Source: Candidatus Woesearchaeota archaeon (GTDB taxonomy: Archaea > Nanobdellota > Nanobdellia > Woesearchaeales > JAGVZT01). Taken from it: a DNA stretch of 64,000 bases. The stretch is from positions 2,779-66,778 of the forward strand of contig JAANXH010000054.1 in assembly GCA_018263355.1 (NCBI GenBank), written 5' to 3'. Made by a program: the position numbers and the translations under genes. How positions within the stretch are numbered: the first letter of the stretch is position 1; each line of letters opens with the position of its first letter. This document shows, piece after piece, positions 4,494 through 61,649 of this stretch. The notes under the pieces were generated by a model. That model was not told where the DNA came from. It searched no databases and was given only the letters and a program-made list of their open reading frames with translations.

Positions 4494-4612
4494 AAAAAGT
4501 GGCACAGAGGCGTTAATACCCTACATCATGTCACTAACGTTCCTGACCTTAAGCATAGCTTAAGGCTTTGGTGTAGGGATTAGCCTCTGTTTTTGACCGC
4601 CACTTTTTCGGA
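4494..4612. repeat. structured repeat family B, copy 1 (nested inverted repeats AAAAAGTGG..CAGAGGC..core..GCCTCTG..CCACTTTTT)
   Basis: near-identical core catcatgtcactaacgttcctgacNttaagcatagcttaaggcttt shared with 33850-34007; compensatory pair ccctaca/tgtaggg vs ccccaca/tgtgggg. Confidence 0.6.
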
Positions 4613-4639
4613 ACAACAAAATCTCTGATTTTGTGTCCA

Positions 4640-4690
4640 GGAAATCAAAGATTTCCTTGAATTGAAAATCCCGCAAAGCGTGATTTTCAA
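4640..4690. repeat. hairpin module X (ggaaatcaaagatttcc + gaaaatc..gattttc) adjacent to family B
   Basis: reverse complement of 33783-33839; same ggaaatc-N-gatttcc hairpin recurs at 6150, 12470, 12592, 12850. Confidence 0.4.
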
Positions 4691-9567: not shown

Positions 9568-10320
9568 TTACATCATGTCACAAAAATATTGTGCAGTTTG
9601 ATTCTCTGCTGCGAATGAAATTCCATCCTCTACCAGTTTATTATTATCACATTTATATATTCTTGCTAGAACTTCTCTGCTGGAGTAATTGTTTGGTAAA
9701 CCTCTTCTTATTGTTTTTGCTGCTGTTTCAGGATCGCTAATTTCAGCCTGCACTATTCTTGTAAGAGTTGTTATAATATTAATCCTGTTGCTGTCAGCCT
9801 GCTCACCTTTTGGTAAATAACCAACTTTTGCAGCAATAAAATCAACTGGATCTGGAACAGAAATTGTCCCTTCTGCAAGATTTATTTGTCTTGCTCTTTC
9901 AAAGAAATCAGGACAAATAATATAATCTCCAAAATGAATAGTTGGTTTGACAGTTTTTGGATACCAGATATCTAATTCAGCCACTTCATCTCCATTCAAA
10001 AATTCTGCAGATGCTTTGTCCTCTCCACCATAACCATTGGCTAGTGTAGATTGTCTAAAATTTGTAACATATCTAATAAGAGAACCTAATGATTGTTCGT
10101 CTTTAAGTATTAAATCAAGGTCTGGTGTTCCATCTGGATTTGGAATATAATTAACGCCTGTTTGTAAAGCTAAAGCTAATACTCCAAATTCATCAACAGA
10201 TATCATATTTTCACATAATGCATGCAAATAATTTGATACTTCTAAAACATTAGCAACATCGGGTCTATTTTCTCTTAAACTAGTCATAACAGAATCCATA
10301 GTTAAATTTGTTTTTCCCAT
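9568..10320 (-). CDS. hypothetical protein
   Basis: 250 aa complete ORF, no motif recognised. Confidence 0.5.
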   Translation of the reverse strand: MGKTNLTMDSVMTSLRENRPDVANVLEVSNYLHALCENMISVDEFGVLALALQTGVNYIPNPDGTPDLDLILKDEQSLGSLIRYVTNFRQSTLANGYGGEDKASAEFLNGDEVAELDIWYPKTVKPTIHFGDYIICPDFFERARQINLAEGTISVPDPVDFIAAKVGYLPKGEQADSNRINIITTLTRIVQAEISDPETAAKTIRRGLPNNYSSREVLARIYKCDNNKLVEDGISFAAENQTAQYFCDMM

Positions 10321-12359: not shown

Positions 12360-12407
12360 AACTAAATGGAGAATAGATTTATTTAAAAGATTTATGTATA
12401 AGATATA

Positions 12408-12688
12408 TTACTCAGAATGCGTTGGGTCTAAATCCCCTGGCTGTCGGGAAGCATAGCTTCCTGAGCATGATCAGAAATCATAGATTTCTGACATTTAGCC
12501 CGTAGCATTATGAGTCTGAAAATCTGCTTATCAAAGTGAAGAGCGTAAAAGCTCCCACCTCTCAGAAATTTTAAATTTCTGATGATGGTTGCCAGAGCAA
12601 CCTATGAATGTTAATGAATATGATCAGAAAACTTTGTTTTCCGACATTTAGGTGGGAGATAAGATCTGAACAGCAGATTTTCTTTATA
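12408..12688. repeat. structured repeat family A, copy 1 (expanded by internal insertions)
   Basis: shares ttactcagaatgcgttgggtctaaa..gagtctgaaaatctgcttatcaaagtgaagagcgtaaaagc..ctgaacagcagattttcttta with 23741-23927 and 28964-29104; stem ctcccacct/aggtgggag covaries with cccccacct/aggtggggg. Confidence 0.7.
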
Positions 12689-12696
12689 AAATAAAA

Positions 12697-12982
12697 TGGG
12701 CTCAGAGGGACTTTCATAAACATTTAATTAAGCTAACCAAAGTTTTAACAATGCATTTGATTGTGTCGTGGTAATTTTGTGTTGATTATTCACCACGTAA
12801 AGGGACTTCAAGTCCCTTATGTTTTGGTCAAACCCAAGGAAAACATAGTTTTCCTGGCACAGGAAATTTTTGATTTCCCGGTGTTTTCTTAAAAGTTTGA
12901 TTTGAACCCTCGACCTATTAACCCAGTTTTAATAACTGTCTGGTTAAGAGCCAGTTGCTCTACCTAGCTAAGCTATGAGCCC
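12697..12982 (-). tRNA. intron-containing tRNA, anticodon CTT (Lys) inferred; about 190-nt intron after the T-loop plus extra insert 3' of anticodon arm
   Basis: 5' exon GGGCTCA ta GCTT AGCTAGGTA GAGC..CTGG CTCTTAA CCAG..GAGGG TTCAAAT; 3' exon CCCTC TGAGCCC A at 12697-12709 exactly complements T-stem and acceptor (12-nt match). Confidence 0.4.
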
Positions 12983-22146: not shown

Positions 22147-24078
22147 TTACTTCACGGTAACTGATTTTGCTAAGTTTCTGGGTTTGTCAGGATCTTTACC
22201 TAATTTTTTTGCTAGGTAATAAGCAAGCAATTGCATTGGTACAACATTTGCAATAGGTGAAGCATACCCACAGTCAGGAACCTTAATCCATTGATCAAAA
22301 ACTTCATTATCTTTTGGACTTACACCAATAATATGACCTCCTCTTGCTTTAACCTCTGCCGCGCTACTTAAAACAGCCATTTTATGTTCATCCTCTCCCA
22401 CAATAGCAATGCAAGGAGTAGCCTCTTCAATCAATGCAATTACACCATGCTTGAGTTCACCGCATGCAAAACCTTCTGCATGAATATAACTAATTTCTTT
22501 TATTTTCAAAGCTGATTCTAAAGCAATAGGATAATTAACACCCTTGCCAATAACATAAATGTGTTTCTTATTTTTTAGCTGATCTGCAATACGTTCAACA
22601 TTATTTAAAAAATCCTTATTAAGTAATTCTTTAATATTCTCTGCAGTATTTAGGATTAATTTTTTGCCCATTTCTTGCTTTCCTGCTAAAGTATAAGCCA
22701 GCATCAATAAAATTGCAATCTGTGAGGTAAATGCTTTTGTTGAAACAACAGAAATTTCTGGACCAGCATTCATTAGAATAGGATAATCTGAAATTCTGGT
22801 CAAACTTGAACCCATTACATTAACAATACTGGCTACTTTGGAATTATGTTTTTTTGCAGTCTCAACAGCATCTAGTGTGTCAGCAGTCTCACCACTTTGG
22901 CTAACTGCTATAACCAAGCTTTTGTCAGTAAGAAAATGTTGGTGATCAGAAAACTCGGAGCCTACTAAAAAATTAATATGTTTTTTGGCAATCTTAGAAA
23001 AATAATATGTGCCAAGTAATGCAGCATAACTTGCAGTACCGCATCCAATCAAAAAACTTCCATAAGCCTTATCAATAACTTTAGCCAGTTTTTTAACTTT
23101 TATACTATCCTGGACTGCAGAATCTTCTATAGTATCTGGTTGCTGCATTATTTCTTTGATTGTGTAGTTCTCGTAATCTCCCTTCTGTGCCTGCTCAACA
23201 TCCCAGTTAACAATTTCAATATCTTTCCTAATCTCCTTTCCAGTATTATCAAAAAACTCAATATTATTATTGATTTCTACACCTTCATCATTATCCAAAA
23301 AAACAATTTTGTTTGTATGCTCAATAAATGCAGGAATATCTGAAGCAATAAAATGACCCTTATCAGAAACACCAACAACAATTGGTGCACCCTTTCTAAT
23401 AGCAAACAATTTTTCACTAGGTTTATGAAATAACACAATTGCATTTCTTCCTTGAATAATATTACCAAGTTTGATTAAAGCGTTTCTTACCCCTAAAGAG
23501 CTATGCTCTTCAAGAAAATGAGCAATCACTTCTGTATCAGTATCAGATATAAATTTATGTTCTGAAAGTGTTTTTTTAATTTCCTGATAATTTTCAATAA
23601 TCCCATTGTGCACAACAATCATATCTTGGTTACAATCAGTTTGTGGATGAGCATTGTTCATAGTAACAGACCCATGTGTGGCCCATCTTGTGTGCCCTAA
23701 TGCAATATTACTTTTATCAAGTTTAACATCTGGATTAAAATTACTCAAAATGTCCAAGGGTCTAAAGCCCCGCCCTTTAGGGCGAGGACTTTTGAGTCTG
23801 AAAATCTGCGTGTCGAAGTGAAGAGCGTAAAAGCCCCCACCTTCAGGTGGGGGAATCAGTTGCCAGAGCAACTCAGAAACGAAGCAAAGCGAAGTGAGAT
23901 TAGCTCTGAACAGCAGATTCTCTTTACCTATCTTCCCTACTTTCTTGATTAGCTGCAGATCATTATCAAAAGTTGCAATTCCCCAAGAATCATAACCCCT
24001 GTACTCTAATCTTTTCAAACCTTCAATAACAATATCTGTTGCATTACCTTTTCCTTTATATGCTATTATACCACACAT
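22147..24078 (-). CDS. glmS: glutamine--fructose-6-phosphate aminotransferase (GlmS) carrying an about 62-aa in-frame insertion from repeat family A
   Basis: MCGI N-terminal nucleophile, HTRWATHG, two SIS domains, C-terminal KSVTV; insertion between GKIGKENL and LGHTRWATHG. Confidence 0.85.
   Translation of the reverse strand: MCGIIAYKGKGNATDIVIEGLKRLEYRGYDSWGIATFDNDLQLIKKVGKIGKENLLFRANLTSLCFVSELLWQLIPPPEGGGFYALHFDTQIFRLKSPRPKGRGFRPLDILSNFNPDVKLDKSNIALGHTRWATHGSVTMNNAHPQTDCNQDMIVVHNGIIENYQEIKKTLSEHKFISDTDTEVIAHFLEEHSSLGVRNALIKLGNIIQGRNAIVLFHKPSEKLFAIRKGAPIVVGVSDKGHFIASDIPAFIEHTNKIVFLDNDEGVEINNNIEFFDNTGKEIRKDIEIVNWDVEQAQKGDYENYTIKEIMQQPDTIEDSAVQDSIKVKKLAKVIDKAYGSFLIGCGTASYAALLGTYYFSKIAKKHINFLVGSEFSDHQHFLTDKSLVIAVSQSGETADTLDAVETAKKHNSKVASIVNVMGSSLTRISDYPILMNAGPEISVVSTKAFTSQIAILLMLAYTLAGKQEMGKKLILNTAENIKELLNKDFLNNVERIADQLKNKKHIYVIGKGVNYPIALESALKIKEISYIHAEGFACGELKHGVIALIEEATPCIAIVGEDEHKMAVLSSAAEVKARGGHIIGVSPKDNEVFDQWIKVPDCGYASPIANVVPMQLLAYYLAKKLGKDPDKPRNLAKSVTVK
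23741..23927. repeat. structured repeat family A, copy 2, inside glmS coding sequence (reverse orientation to gene, no stop codons in gene frame)
   Basis: ttactcaaaatgtccaagggtctaaagcccc..gagtctgaaaatctgc..gtgaagagcgtaaaagcccccaccttcaggtggggg..ctgaacagcagattctctttac. Confidence 0.7.
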
Positions 24079-28952: not shown

Positions 28953-28963
28953 AAATACCCATT

Positions 28964-29104
28964 TTACTCAGAATGCGTTGGGTCTAAAGCCCCGGGCTTT
29001 AGCCCGCAGCATTATGAGTCTGAAAATCTGCTTATCAAAGTGAAGAGCGTAAAAGCCCCCTCCTTTAGGTGGGGGATCAGCTCTGAACAGCAGATTTTCT
29101 TTAC
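28964..29104. repeat. structured repeat family A, copy 3 (compact form)
   Basis: ttactcagaatgcgttgggtctaaagccccgggctttagccc..gagtctgaaaatctgcttatcaaagtgaagagcgtaaaagccccctcctttaggtggggg..ctgaacagcagattttctttac. Confidence 0.7.
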
Positions 29105-29201
29105 TTCAAAAAATATATTATGAAACTATTTTATGATTTCAATATTCTCAATAAAAACAAATAAATACTTTACCCAAATAATCAAAAACAGGTGATAATT
29201 A

Positions 29202-32890: not shown

Positions 32891-32934
32891 TAATATTGCA
32901 AGTAAGTGTTTACTTTTAAATTTAATTATTGAGA

Positions 32935-33120
32935 GGCAAAGTCACTGATCTGTGTTAGCTCCATAAATGCCTGATTTAAGTGAAGGAGACAACGATGATC
33001 GTAAGAGTCAGTGGGGGAACAGTTTGCCTTCTGTAAATAAAACTTAATGCAATATGAATGGGTTTTAGCAAACTGGCGACTGAACCTGCAATGTGGGGCT
33101 AACATTAACTTGACTTCGCC
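32935..33120. repeat. repeat family E, copy 1: about 186-nt element bounded by 13-bp terminal inverted repeats (ggcaaagtcaNtg / cNttgacttcgcc), MITE-like, in MFS gene leader
   Basis: about 90% identical to reverse complement of 42022-42210; shared context continues to caatattaATGAAA start. Confidence 0.6.
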
Positions 33121-33138
33121 TTATTGAGAAATATTAAC

Positions 33139-33555: not shown

Positions 33556-33782
33556 ACTCTTTTATTTAAACTATTTACTTAAAAACTTTTCTATTAAGAT
33601 TCAGGCAGTGATACAATCTAGATTAATGAAGCGAGATCTACTTTTCGTTATTTGAAAATTTTACAGGTTTAATATGTCTGAAAAATGTTGTTTTTCTGAT
33701 CATCTCAGAAATCTTCAATTTCTAAGACCTCACATAATATCACTTAGGTTCCTAACTTTCAGCGTAGCTGAAAGCTTCAGTG

Positions 33783-33839
33783 TGAAATTTTCAATTCAAG
33801 GAAATCTTTGATTTCCTGAAAAGAAAATGTTTCACATTT
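33783..33839. repeat. hairpin module X, inverted copy, adjacent to family B copy 2
   Basis: gattttcaattcaaggaaatctttgatttcctg is reverse complement of 4640-4672. Confidence 0.4.
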
Positions 33840-33849
33840 TCAAGTTCCG

Positions 33850-34007
33850 AAAAAGTGGTAGTCAAAGCAGAGGCGACAATACCCCACATCATGTCACTAA
33901 CGTTCCTGACATTAAGCATAGCTTAAGGCTTTATTGTGGGGATTGGTTGGAAAGCGAAGCTTTACAACTCACTGAACACAGTGACCGTGAGCCTCTGCAC
34001 CACTTTT
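33850..34007. repeat. structured repeat family B, copy 2
   Basis: same core and nested stems as 4494-4612, with compensatory substitutions. Confidence 0.6.
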
Positions 34008-39599: not shown

Positions 39600-41078
39600 T
39601 TAACCTCCACATCCGCATGTTCCACCTGTTGCTGCACCACAAGTTGATGAGCCACAACTTCCTCCACAGCTTCCTCTTTTTTGTGCAGGAGCATTATCTA
39701 TCTCTTCTTGGACTGCCTGTTTATCATTAAGATCAATATCTTCTTTAACAATAAATGTGCCAGGAATCATACCCATCCAGCAGCTCCACCTAATATTGCC
39801 CTCCTTGTCAGGTGTAAATTCAATAACTTGTTCTCCCTGCTTTATATCAAACTCAAGACCATATTTTGGTACTTGTATTGCATTATTGCATCCATTTATC
39901 TCTTTTCCATCAATAATCCATTTAACAGGAACTCCTTTTTTCAAAACAAAAGTGTCTGGTTCCCATCCATATCTATTAACTTCCATTCTTATTTCTTGGT
40001 AACCATTGTTTAACACAACTCCATCAAGGTCAACAGAATTCTCAGTACCAAGTGCAGTTGCATAACCCACAATTGATGTGAAATCAAAACCAGTTCCAGT
40101 CAAAACCAATCCATTATTAATCATAACCAAACCTAGAATGATTACAATCGCTCCAGATGCTTTCAATATCTTGTGGGTCATCTTATTTGAGATATAACTT
40201 GTAAGATAACCAAACCCAAGCATAACTGGAAGTGTTCCAAGCCCGAACACAAGTAATAACTTTGCACCTTCAATAAAGCTTCCTGTTCCAGCAGCCATAA
40301 TATAAATTGCCTGCAAAGGTCCGCATGCAAGCATTAGTCCATTTAGTAAACCAATAACTAAAGGATTTGAACTTTTAGACTTCTTTTTAATAGCAAATTT
40401 TGCTAAAAATTCTGGTGTCTTAAACTGTATTTTTCTTAAAACAGGAAAAATATTTAGCATTTTTAATCCATATAAGACCAAGAATAGTCCAGCAAACAAA
40501 CCTATTAATCCTCGCATTAAAGGGGTAAAAGCAACAACTGCTCCAATTAAACCAAATACAGCTCCAATTATAGTATATGAGATTGTTTTACCAAGCCCAT
40601 ACATCAAATGTGATTTATGAGATGTTTTTCCTTCTTTTGCATCTTTTGCAGTATATCCAACAACAAACCCACCGCACATACCAACACAATGAAAACCAGT
40701 AAGCAGTCCAACAATAAATAATAATCCATAACCCATACCCTGGCTTATCTCTGGAAGCTGAATAGAGTCAACAAAACCTAATAAAAAATAGCCCGCAATA
40801 ATCACACCAATAATTGCAAAAATCCAGCCAAACCCCTTTTTAGATTTTTCCTCTGACTCATCTAAAATAAAACATTCATAATTTTTCTCCTCAATCTTGC
40901 TTAAAATATCATCAATATTTGTTTTTGCAGTGTCAAAACTAACATATCCAACCTCTGTTGAAAAATCAAATGTTACTTTTTTAACACCTTTAACCTTTAA
41001 AGCCTGCTTTTTAATAATTTTAGCACAATTATCACAAGTTGTACCTTCTGCAATAAATCCTTTCTTTTCAATAGCCAT
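39600..41078 (-). CDS. fusion protein: HMA metal-binding domain + DsbD_2/CcdA-like membrane domain + cupredoxin-like domain + Gly/Cys-rich tail (start moved to MAIEKKGF; upstream in-frame extension lies in repeat D)
   Basis: TCDNCAKIIKK (HMA); TM HCVGMCGG; IRWSCWMGMIPGTF cupredoxin-like; tail GSCGGSCGSSTCG; GGAGGT 8 nt upstream of ATG at 41078. Confidence 0.7.
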   Translation of the reverse strand: MAIEKKGFIAEGTTCDNCAKIIKKQALKVKGVKKVTFDFSTEVGYVSFDTAKTNIDDILSKIEEKNYECFILDESEEKSKKGFGWIFAIIGVIIAGYFLLGFVDSIQLPEISQGMGYGLLFIVGLLTGFHCVGMCGGFVVGYTAKDAKEGKTSHKSHLMYGLGKTISYTIIGAVFGLIGAVVAFTPLMRGLIGLFAGLFLVLYGLKMLNIFPVLRKIQFKTPEFLAKFAIKKKSKSSNPLVIGLLNGLMLACGPLQAIYIMAAGTGSFIEGAKLLLVFGLGTLPVMLGFGYLTSYISNKMTHKILKASGAIVIILGLVMINNGLVLTGTGFDFTSIVGYATALGTENSVDLDGVVLNNGYQEIRMEVNRYGWEPDTFVLKKGVPVKWIIDGKEINGCNNAIQVPKYGLEFDIKQGEQVIEFTPDKEGNIRWSCWMGMIPGTFIVKEDIDLNDKQAVQEEIDNAPAQKRGSCGGSCGSSTCGAATGGTCGCGG

Positions 41079-41097
41079 ATTTTCTACCTCCAAAATT

Positions 41098-41267
41098 TGG
41101 CCAGTGCTACAAATGGACTGATAGTGGTCAAAATTCGTCTGTGCCGTGGATGACATGAAATGACTTTTTTGTTATTCATGGCGGGGCCAGACGTAGTTTT
41201 TCTGCAGGAAAAACAGAGTAGGATTTTGAACCATATTAGTCACTCTGATACACTGCCAAAATTTGTA
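41098..41267 (-). promoter_or_regulatory. repeat family D copy 1: about 170-nt structured leader element immediately 5' of the HMA-DsbD_2 gene
   Basis: about 90% identical to 61399-61556 with compensatory changes (gccgtgg/tcatggc vs gccatgg/tcgtggc; GGCAGTG/CACTGGCC vs GGCGGTG/CACTGCC). Confidence 0.55.
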
Positions 41268-41421
41268 TCCTTAATTGTGATTGCCATTCTAAGAGGAAAT
41301 CTAAGCATTTATTTATTCCTTAGCTAAGCAAATTTACCCTTCTAACCGTTTAAAACAAATAAATAATTGTCCAAGAACGTTTAAAGACAAATTTTATATA
41401 GGTGTAAGGTAATTTCAAATT

Positions 41422-41964: not shown

Positions 41965-42021
41965 AACTATCAACTTGGTCACTAATCAAGTCAGCACACT
42001 GCTAAGCAGTTAAAAGTTCTC

Positions 42022-42210
42022 GGCAAAGTCAACTTAATTGTGGAAAGCCCCATAATACCGGTTCAGTCGCCAGTTTGCTAAACTCTCCTTGATATTGTAT
42101 TAAGTCATATTAATAGACGGCAAACTGTTCCCACTGACTCTTACGATCATCGTTGTCTCCTTCACTTAACTCAGGCATTAATGGAGCTAACACAGAGTAG
42201 TTGACTTTGC
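42022..42210. repeat. repeat family E, copy 2: MITE-like element with perfect 13-bp terminal inverted repeats ggcaaagtcaact/agttgactttgcc, in EamA gene leader
   Basis: inverted copy of 32935-33120; same orientation relative to downstream gene as copy 1. Confidence 0.6.
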
Positions 42211-42267
42211 CAAAGTTCTCTAATTTTACCAATAAATTTATTAACAATAATCTTTTGTACAATATTA

Positions 42268-53387: not shown

Positions 53388-53834
53388 ACTTAGCTAGAAC
53401 TAAAAACCATTTTTAAATCTTATCAAAATAACATGTGCATATTTAATAGATTTGGATTCTAATGATTCGCAACTGAAATTTTTAACAACAACACAGGCAC
53501 AGACGGATTTTTCGTTAAAAAATCCTACTCAGCTACGCTTCGCCTAGCCAATGTTGTTAAAATTTGAATGTTTTAGAAGCTTTAAGGTAGTGTCAACTAG
53601 TGTTGCAGGTTTTTTATTAGCTCCGTGACAAGATGAAGTCGAACAGGTTCCTCTACAAAGTGGAGGGTTCTGTTCGATGGAATAAGACTTTAAAACAAAG
53701 TCTGTCTTTGTCATGGAGGAGATAATAAAACTATTACTTCATAGTTTGACATTGCAGAAAATTCCTTTGCTAGAATACAGGATTATTCATATGATTATAG
53801 AATTAATTAAAAGTATTCATATGTTTTGATGTGA

Positions 53835-53853
53835 GTCCCAGTCCCGGCGTTTT
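53835..53853. repeat. short motif family C copy 1 (gtcccagtcccggcgtttt)
   Basis: 17/19 identical to 56426-56444. Confidence 0.3.
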
Positions 53854-53897
53854 ACTTTCTGTTAAAAACCCTTGAAAAAACAAAACATTTATATAGT

Positions 53898-59358: not shown

Positions 59359-59817
59359 TCAACCAACAATATCAACAGTCTCAAACATAGACTTTAAGCC
59401 TTTTTTCAAAGACTTTTTATTACAAATCCTATTATGTACATATGGCTTTATAACCCATTTTCTCTGCAGCGAGGATTCTTGATTAAAAAATATCAATTTC
59501 AAATCTGGATTTTTAGATATTTCTTCCCAATCATTTACCAGAGTTTTGAAATTATGTTTTGAATTTATTGCAACAATAATAGGATTTGATTTAAGGCCAG
59601 AAAAATCAACATCTTCTAAATTAACAATAGGATAATAATGCTCTACTTTATCAGACTTATATTTAACAATAATAACACCTTTTTCTTCCAACATCTCTTT
59701 CATCTTTTTATGATAAGCATTAACAAATTTGATATAGTTTTTTACCCATTCAAACACATCTTCTTGCTTCATAAATTGAGAGCATATATTTTTACTTAAA
59801 AACTTTTTGATAATCAT
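59359..59817 (-). CDS. hypothetical protein
   Basis: 152 aa ORF. Confidence 0.45.
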   Translation of the reverse strand: MIIKKFLSKNICSQFMKQEDVFEWVKNYIKFVNAYHKKMKEMLEEKGVIIVKYKSDKVEHYYPIVNLEDVDFSGLKSNPIIVAINSKHNFKTLVNDWEEISKNPDLKLIFFNQESSLQRKWVIKPYVHNRICNKKSLKKGLKSMFETVDIVG

Positions 59818-61089: not shown

Positions 61090-61371
61090 TTAAGCAATTT
61101 TTTTGCAATAATAAAACACAACTAATGCAATTATTACAAAATTTATTAGCTCAGCCACAAAAGCACCTCATCCAAGAGAAACAGGTCCTAAAACCAATTT
61201 AGCTGTTTTCCAGTTTCCTCCAGGAATTAGTGGAGTAATAAGTGGCATAATAATATTGTCCACCAATGATTTAACCAAAGCTGTTGCAGCAGCGCCTATT
61301 ATGAATGCAATAGCTAAACCAATAACTTTATACTCTTTTAAAAATTCCAAAAATTCATCTTTAAATCCCAT
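61090..61371 (-). pseudogene. mscL: mscL-like gene with internal in-frame TGA: N-terminal 68 codons, TGA at 61168-61170, then 25 in-frame codons encoding the MscL TM2-like segment
   Basis: MGFKDEFLEFLKEYKVIGLAIAFIIGAAATALVKSLVDNIIMPLI..LGPVSLG * GAFVAELINFVIIALVVFYYCKKIA; both halves MscL-like and in same frame. Confidence 0.45.
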
Positions 61372-61398
61372 ATACTCACCCCATTTAATTCTTAGTTT

Positions 61399-61556
61399 GG
61401 CAGTGTTACAAATAGACTGATGGTGGTCAAAATTCGTCTGTGCCATGGATGACATGAAATAACCTTTTTGTTATTCGTGGCAGGGCCAGACGTAGTTTTT
61501 CTGCAGGAAAAACAGAGTAGGATTTTGAACAATATCAGTCACTCTGATACACCGCC
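61399..61556 (-). promoter_or_regulatory. repeat family D copy 2: structured leader element 5' of mscL
   Basis: see 41098-41267; GGTGAG Shine-Dalgarno-like 5 nt upstream of ATG at 61371. Confidence 0.55.
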
Positions 61557-61649
61557 TTAACTTGACATTGCCTGTCTTATGTATCACTACAAAATGCTAA
61601 AATTTATATATCAGTGTATCTTTTTGTAAACTACAAAAAAGAGGTTATA

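Follow-up and report, generated by a model that had tools for sequence, protein, structure and literature searches.

Our study asks why, on one archaeal contig, two unrelated membrane genes should be preceded by almost the same stretch of non-coding DNA. The host contig is archaeal by gene content, which includes an aIF5B-type IF-2, TrmB/MarR regulators and GatD/GatE, and the 64,000 nucleotides of it that were analysed are referred to here as the window. A first-pass annotation had described two near-identical elements of about 170 nt and had left the choice between a cis-regulatory RNA, such as a riboswitch or attenuator, and a mobile promoter or leader cassette. We propose, with a probability of about 0.8, that the element is a 156-157-bp non-coding, non-autonomous DNA transposon (MITE) of Woesearchaeota MAG795; read in this way it is a new MITE family, ordinary in kind, and not a shared regulatory leader.

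The element and its two sites

The two elements, copies A and B, are present where they had been described and have the same orientation, both lying on the minus strand; their identity is 91-92% across alignments, and 145 of 157 positions agree after trimming to the homology breakpoints (Table 1). A repeat finder run on the window reported the pair as one two-copy family of 169 nt with 91% identity, and both copies contain an identical 45-nt core, for which the chance expectation is 0 matches. Copy A lies 5' of a gene for an HMA-DsbD_2-cupredoxin fusion protein (identified by Pfam and, like the element, on the minus strand), and copy B directly 5' of the minus-strand mscL gene (identified by domain search). 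The distance from the end of the element to the ATG, which had been given as the same at both sites, is merely similar, at 21 nt for copy A and 28 nt for copy B. The G+C content of the element is 42%, against 33% for the window. No tRNAs or Rfam families were found at threshold across the 64-kb window.

Table 1. Coordinates of the element copies and associated features in the window (., no strand assigned; R1, covariance model of the core).
Feature	Position	Strand	Basis
Putative MITE copy A, 157 bp	41100..41256	-	A/B homology breakpoints; absent from the matching interval in 13 relatives
Putative MITE copy B, 156 bp; mscL ATG 28 nt downstream	61400..61555	-	Homology breakpoints
Three-way-junction core, copy A	41126..41234	-	R1, 104.7 bits; predicted fold
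Three-way-junction core, copy B	61425..61533	-	R1, 105.8 bits
Relic, circularly permuted core order	53496..53530	+	R1, 16.9 bits, E=3.9
Predicted TATA box AATAAATAAATG, HMA-DsbD gene; 49 nt ahead of copy A	41306..41317	-	Aligns with the conserved GAATGGTATTAATAAATG of relatives
Left terminal inverted repeat, copy A, GCAGTGTATCAGAGTGACTAATATGGTTCAAAAT	41223..41256	-	First-40/last-40 reverse-complement alignment
Right terminal inverted repeat, copy A	41100..41133	-	First-40/last-40 reverse-complement alignment
Target-site duplication, copy A, gene-proximal, CAAAATTTG on + strand	41091..41099	.	Perfect 9/9, abutting both ends
Target-site duplication, copy A, distal, CAAAATTTG	41257..41265	.	Perfect 9/9
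Flanking direct repeat, copy B, gene-proximal, CTTAGTTTG	61391..61399	.	7/9 match to 61556-61564; both mismatches transitions
Flanking direct repeat, copy B, distal, CTTAACTTG	61556..61564	.	7/9 match to 61391-61399
Accidental in-frame ATG in copy A, +26 residues MSSTAQTNFDHYQSIC...	41154..41156	-	Translations; NCBI record has the 492-aa form from 41078
Accidental in-frame ATG in copy B	61453..61455	-	NCBI starts the 95-aa MscL (MBS1267234) here; 28 residues MITE-derived

Each copy is bounded by imperfect terminal inverted repeats of about 34 nt, with the termini GCAGTG...CACTG(G)C. The first 40 nt match the reverse complement of the last 40 nt at about 75% identity, and in copy B the two ends, GCGGTGTATCAGAGTGACTGATATTGTTCAAAAT and GCAGTGTTACAAATAGACTGATGGTGGTCAAAAT, agree at 29 of 40 positions in an ungapped comparison. 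Direct repeats of 9 bp abut the element at both sites, and these flanking 9-mers are only 6/9 alike between copies A and B while the element bodies are 92% alike; the 9-mers therefore belong to the targets and not to the element. The duplication could instead be read as 7 bp long (AAATTTT), if the element takes one more base at each end. Duplications of 9 bp are typical of IS1, IS4, the IS903 group of IS5, IS256 and ISAs1.

The window also contains a second, unrelated repeat family, with copies of about 186-190 bp in opposite orientations at 32935-33120 (plus strand) and 42022-42211 (minus strand). The family ends are GGCAAAGTCA...TGACTTTGCC, with TGACTT(C/T)GCC, and those of the 32935-33120 copy read GGCAAAGTCA…TGACTTCGCC. 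Each copy is flanked by a perfect 9-bp duplication, TTATTGAGA at 32926-32934 and 33121-33129 for the first, and GAGAACTTT (in the minus-strand reading) at 42013-42021 and 42212-42220 for the second, which shows that transposition with a 9-bp duplication has operated in this genome. One copy of this second family lies between a MarR-like and an EamA gene, about 800 bp from copy A.

The promoter of the HMA-DsbD gene allows the insertion site of copy A to be compared with its counterparts in other species. In the 13 relatives inspected, a conserved operator TTTAAACGTTCTGGGACAATAATT, a second TAAACG box and a TATA box GAATGGTATTAATAAATG are followed 21-35 nt on by the start codon of a small HMA gene, and the element is absent. 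The window retains the operator and the TATA box, and from 49 nt past the latter come the 157-bp element, the duplicated 9-mer, GGAGGT and the ATG. This is a comparison between species, with relatives at about 70% protein identity and a locus that is rearranged here (inverted MarR-like gene, no small HMA gene); a search of the protein collection for a strain-level empty site gave none, the best homologue of a flanking protein being 75% identical. The usual archaeal distance between TATA box and start site would put the transcription start some 25 nt ahead of the element, and copy A within a 5' UTR of about 210 nt. The view of copy A as leader sequence thus holds to the extent that, given the conserved TATA box 49 nt upstream in the alignment with relatives, it is probably part of the transcribed leader. 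At this locus a putative MITE separates a conserved archaeal promoter from the ribosome-binding site of a gene for metal homeostasis, a concrete setting in which the effect of a 157-nt hairpin leader on archaeal expression could be measured.

Operator-like boxes occur together with a TATA box at 41320-41400 (minus strand) and, in loci L016-L052 of related genomes, upstream of about position 10001. In many Woesearchaeota they adjoin a gene for a membrane-anchored MarR/TrmB-like regulator and lie upstream of HMA or HMA-DsbD_2 genes, and they are likely to be the site of a metal-responsive regulon.

Further copies and the case for transposition

A six-frame pseudo-protein of the element, used as the query against 5.8 billion proteins, returned a single protein, 'hypothetical protein MAG795_00409' (P0001), whose first 32 residues (MTFLLFMTGPDVVF…) are a plus-strand reading of the element. 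This is a third copy, copy C, on another contig of MAG795; it is about 92% identical to copy A and known from one end, the other end being unassembled. Copy C is reversed with respect to the adjacent gene, whose TATA-like box and real GGAGGT-ATG start (L008:214) both lie downstream of the element. Logan contigs carrying copy A, B or C begin or end inside the element in at least seven samples (SRR10589499, -500, -502, -504, -505, -507 and -508), as is typical when a multi-copy repeat is not resolved in assembly, and the fragmentation of short-read assemblies of this organism at element sites is thereby explained. An exact look-up of the MarR-like neighbour, aimed at contigs that cross the far side of copy A, found no record of that protein. 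A 2142-bp Logan unitig (L012-L015) is the same in at least four samples and has its far end near the gene at 59359-59817, which suggests another repeat or variable site near position 59359 of the window.

We then have three copies on two contigs, and one relic, in MAG795. Across 80 loci (1.3 Mb) around HMA-DsbD homologues from related Woesearchaeota and Nanoarchaeota, at 56-73% protein identity, BLAST and the covariance model R1 found related elements in one other species only, so that the family is patchy among the 80 related species. The contig in question, CAXGTL010000027 of a Tara Oceans bin, has two related elements (L020a and L020b) in opposite orientations about 4.3 kb apart, each in the gap that runs from a stop codon to the TATA box of the following co-directional gene, which encodes AspRS in one case and a hypothetical protein in the other. 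Three independent assemblies give the same sequence for both Tara elements, and a fourth has a break within one of the two. The genes next to the five copies are unrelated to each other; four of the five oriented copies are in the sense direction with respect to local transcription, which is not significant but would be compatible with an RNA role.

Searches for the core in larger collections returned chance matches or nothing. An exact 20-mer scan gave 0 matches in 185,579 GTDB species genomes and six in JGI metagenomes, all of them chance and confined to the 20-mer; one further 20-mer scan found nothing. Gapped core patterns were tried on IMG/VR and the nine loci returned were discarded as chance, being protein-coding repeats (…SGPSTSGP…GTDD…) or the pattern alone, with at most 25.7 bits. 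In the IMG/VR contigs L096, L097, L099 and L100 it is viral acidic-repeat proteins (…DDLLRTSGPSTSGPADADFDY…GTDDDPLYGFDLDDLL…) that match the degenerate core pattern by chance, a caution for pattern scans with this motif.

The suggestion of a mobile cassette is supported by the inverted repeats and duplications, the unrelated loci, the reversed third copy and the absence of the element between promoter and ATG in 13 related species. As in known MITEs, the element is non-coding and shorter than about 500 bp (all six frames are broken, or open solely through read-through into the flanks), has terminal inverted repeats and flanking duplications (9/9 in copy A and 7/9 in copy B), and is dispersed in either orientation. 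A same-ended autonomous insertion sequence with its transposase was absent from the 64-kb window: no transposase domain was found among 39 scanned ORFs, all those of at least 200 aa included, and no further matches to the element ends were found in the window. Mobilisation would then be in trans; many catalogued MITEs are likewise without a partner (PMC11602168).

Our sequence analysis suggests a model in which a transposase encoded elsewhere in the genome would bind the two ends, with their imperfect inverted repeats of about 34 bp (GCAGTGTATCAGAGTGACTGAT...), and excise or copy the element. Insertion would occur at AT-rich sites through a 9-bp staggered cut, the repair of which would give the flanking 9-bp duplication. 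Copies A and B would have landed in the leaders of two unrelated genes, copy A downstream of a conserved archaeal TATA box and ahead of the Shine-Dalgarno sequence, where the element would probably be co-transcribed as a long 5' UTR hairpin; expression would be affected, if at all, as a side effect of the insertion. In this model we infer the transposase, the timing of insertion and the transcription through the element.

Prokaryotic MITEs such as Sulfolobus SM1-SM4, Coxiella QMITE2 and the Neisseria Correia elements (PMC10969869) resemble the element in many respects: a length of about 150 bp without coding capacity, imperfect inverted repeats, direct repeats of 7-9 bp, AT-rich intergenic targets, a stable stem-loop transcript, insertion in or beside leaders and occasional in-frame read-through into them. 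It differs from these in having no sequence likeness to the families tested, and in that what is shared across species is an internal core and not the ends. Very MITE-dense Woesearchaeota have been reported, with 'a Woesearchaea genome' among the highest archaeal densities at 105 per Mb (PMC11602168); the likeness to the MITE-dense DPANN and Woesearchaeota genomes of that study (Nadal-Molero et al. 2024, PMC11602168) is one of host group, at the level of the phylum. Within its 64 kb the window has at least two putative MITE families and two more structured repeat families, and documents one such family, plus a second nearby, in a DPANN archaeon with a small, gene-dense genome.

The three-way-junction core and competing explanations

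The predicted fold of each copy is a single long, imperfect hairpin with a three-way junction at its middle, at -48 to -55 kcal/mol and far more stable than that of shuffled sequences (z -5 to -5.9). The opposite strand reaches -62 kcal/mol (z = -5.15); both strands fold well, as expected of a DNA palindrome, and the folding energies are thus no evidence for an RNA of one polarity. Copies A and B are separated by 12 substitutions (11 transitions) and one indel. Compensatory changes in at least two helices had been reported from these copies, and this did not hold up: no pair has changed on both sides between A and B, and the paired changes are one-sided and G-U-compatible, five fitting the plus strand and two the minus strand, a preference that is not significant. 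This is the pattern expected for neutral drift of DNA copies.

The core of the element consists of P1 (AAAAU/AUUUU), a junction UCCUACUCU, the P2 hairpin, CUA, P3 (CGUCUGGCC/GGCACAGACG) and a variable P4 hairpin. It occurs in three independent lineages. Identity is 73% both between the two Tara copies and between these and the MAG795 copies, on a scale where conserved genes of MAG795 and the Tara species have 74% and 67% nucleotide identity, and this likeness is very uneven. Invariant or nearly invariant blocks are AAAAATCCTAYT, the stem of the short hairpin, CTWCRTCTGGCC, TGCC and GGCACAGACGRAT.

We also located the rearranged fragment noted earlier near 53.5 kb, which is real and consists of GGCACAGACGGAT (53496-53508) and AAAAATCCTACT (53519-53530), 10 nt apart. 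Its order is circularly permuted, with the 3' strand of P3 and P1 (GGCACAGACGGAUUUUU) followed by a CGUU loop and then by the 5' strand of P1 with the junction (AAAAAAUCCUACUC), and it sits in an outer stem formed by 53479-53492 and 53550-53563. The relic occupies an unusually long intergenic region of 510 nt upstream of aIF5B (53388-53897), which also has stretches richer in G+C (for example 53590-53690); a search of 53388-53897 against Rfam gave no match at E<=1.

This uneven conservation sits awkwardly with the simplest account of a MITE, since the Tara elements share the core and not the terminal repeats, and the reverse would be expected if a transposase constrained the sequence. Possible causes of the core conservation are subterminal protein-binding sites derived from related parent insertion sequences, horizontal transfer, concerted evolution of the palindrome arms, or a functional RNA or DNA module. 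The last of these would extend the MITE explanation and not replace it: the element would be a MITE that carries or spreads its three-way-junction core as a functional module, which could be a small structured RNA with a role in protein binding, processing or self-cleavage, or else a DNA site recognised by a protein of the host or the transposon. We consider this a minority possibility. It is consistent with the retention of the core motifs AAAAUCCUAYU, CUWCRUCUGGCC and GGCACAGACG in the two diverged Tara Woesearchaeota elements, the first two and GGCACAGACGRAU being invariant or nearly so between MAG795 and Tara even though the Tara elements are only 73% identical to one another and the outer arms cannot be aligned. 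By direct reading, the P1 extension and P2 keep their pairing through two-sided changes (C-G against U-A between L020a and L020b, and U-A against A-U in P2), in columns that MAFFT and the model misalign. Such symmetric changes in an inverted repeat can also result from a need for symmetric protein binding, or from template-switch correction of a quasi-palindrome, without any RNA; and covariation statistics on the core found all 19 alignable pairs invariant, with no statistical covariation.

The permuted relic has the same motifs, and small ribozyme and aptamer cores are known to permit permutation, but the P3 of the relic no longer pairs. Both Tara copies are fixed, as judged from the three assemblies in which they are identical; against this, the lineages with the core number only three, and horizontal transfer of a related parent element could also give the likeness. 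A search of the element against Rfam 15, on both strands, gave no family at threshold, nor any at E<=10 beyond two noise matches, the small ribozymes and the IS605 and HEARO RNAs included. A more specific proposal, that the core of about 110 nt (P1-UCCUAYU-P2-CUW-CRUCUGGCC-P4-GGCACAGACG-P1') is an undescribed functional RNA of Woesearchaeota, a ribozyme or protein-binding module that spreads in MITE-like rods, tolerates permutation and is kept by purifying selection while the arms decay, is in our view improbable. The core shared across species is nonetheless the sole part of the element that could lead to something new.

Several known structures were compared with the core. Resemblances to a hammerhead, box C/D, a k-turn, a bulge-helix-bulge, a tRNA T-arm and an origin recognition box were judged by eye, and none held across all copies. 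A self-cleaving ribozyme (hammerhead, twister, pistol, hatchet or HDV-like) was rejected, with Rfam empty on both strands at E<=10 and no CUGAUGA/GAAA seen by eye.

A cis-regulatory leader RNA, that is a riboswitch or attenuator common to membrane or metal-homeostasis genes, is very unlikely. Copies A and B do resemble structured 5' leaders, as both are in the sense direction, 21-28 nt before a start codon and downstream of a plausible TATA box, with a strong predicted structure and a three-way junction in which unpaired nucleotides are conserved, and the L020 copies allow alternative P4 pairings by eye. This likeness between promoter and start codon applies to A and B alone. The HMA-DsbD orthologues of the 13 relatives do without the element, copy C runs antisense to its neighbour and lies ahead of the promoter of that gene, and L020a and L020b lie outside leaders, between a stop codon and the next TATA box, at unrelated genes. 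Thus there is neither conservation upstream of orthologous or related genes, nor a fixed sense orientation in the 5' UTR, nor a described aptamer family (no Rfam match at E<=10), and the substitutions are not strand-specific. The identity of 92% extends through non-core positions and, with the flanking duplications, indicates recent transposition, and the mscL gene behind copy B has a premature in-frame TGA. The riboswitch or attenuator reading is accordingly dropped, and a false riboswitch candidate is removed.

Least credible is a hairpin element that a tyrosine HUH transposase moves as single-stranded DNA, such as an IS200/IS605-type PATE or a RAYT-moved REPIN, or else a stand-alone guide-RNA scaffold of TnpB or IS110 type. 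IS200/IS605, REPIN and TnpB/IS110-type families are abundant in archaea, and the element shares with REPINs and PATEs its nature as a dispersed intergenic hairpin repeat of about 100-200 nt, with a rod-like hairpin and a structure conserved internally rather than at the ends, but IS200/IS605 elements and REPINs have subterminal hairpins recognised as single-stranded DNA and neither terminal inverted repeats nor target-site duplications, whereas the element has both, the IS605-orfB and HEARO RNAs of Rfam are unmatched, and the window has no TnpA, TnpB or IS110 gene.

Gene starts and other repeats in the window

The interpretation of the element as a MITE also bears on the gene starts assigned around it. 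The ATG within each copy is in frame with the downstream gene, as had been pointed out, and the ORFs 39600..41156 and 61168..61455 confirm this. The real starts are the downstream ATGs, at 41076-41078 and 61369-61371, which are preceded by GGAGGT or GGGGTGAG; this assignment, favoured in the first-pass annotation, agrees with the 492-aa form of the fusion protein already on the NCBI record. The upstream in-frame ATGs are accidental, and they are the cause of two N-terminal mis-annotations. In MBS1267234 (window 61168-61455) the 28 N-terminal residues come from the putative MITE and flanking intergenic DNA and not from the gene, and in the 240-aa MAG795_00409 (protein P0001, MBS1266442; L008:10-732) 68 N-terminal residues come from the element and its intergenic flank. 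The insertion of a MITE would in this way explain two or three mis-annotated N-termini in a public MAG, those of the 95-aa 'MscL' and the 240-aa MAG795_00409, and a spurious 518-aa ORF.

The mscL frame itself is interrupted by an in-frame TGA (61168-61170, minus strand) after codon 67, beyond which an MscL-like sequence, GAFVAELINFVIIALVVFYYCKKIA, carries on in frame. In this genome TGA serves as an ordinary stop codon (10 of 37 ORFs), and independent Logan assemblies show the one in mscL as well; mscL is thus probably either a pseudogene or a gene with read-through.

Two further structured repeat families were observed in the window. The first, with three copies on the plus strand at 12405-12700, 23758-23926 and 28961-29114, is G+C-rich and modular, starts with TTACTCAGAATGCGTTGGGTCTAAAGCCCC and ends with CTGAACAGCAGATTTTCTTTA; hairpin modules have been inserted or deleted between its copies, it has no obvious terminal inverted repeats and no Rfam match, and it could be a non-coding RNA family or another type of repeat. 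The second (CAGAGGCG…ACCCYACATCATGTCACTAACGTTCCTGAC…) has direct and inverted partial copies at 4505-4670 and 33714-33944, and adjacent short hairpins are common to both sites in inverted form.
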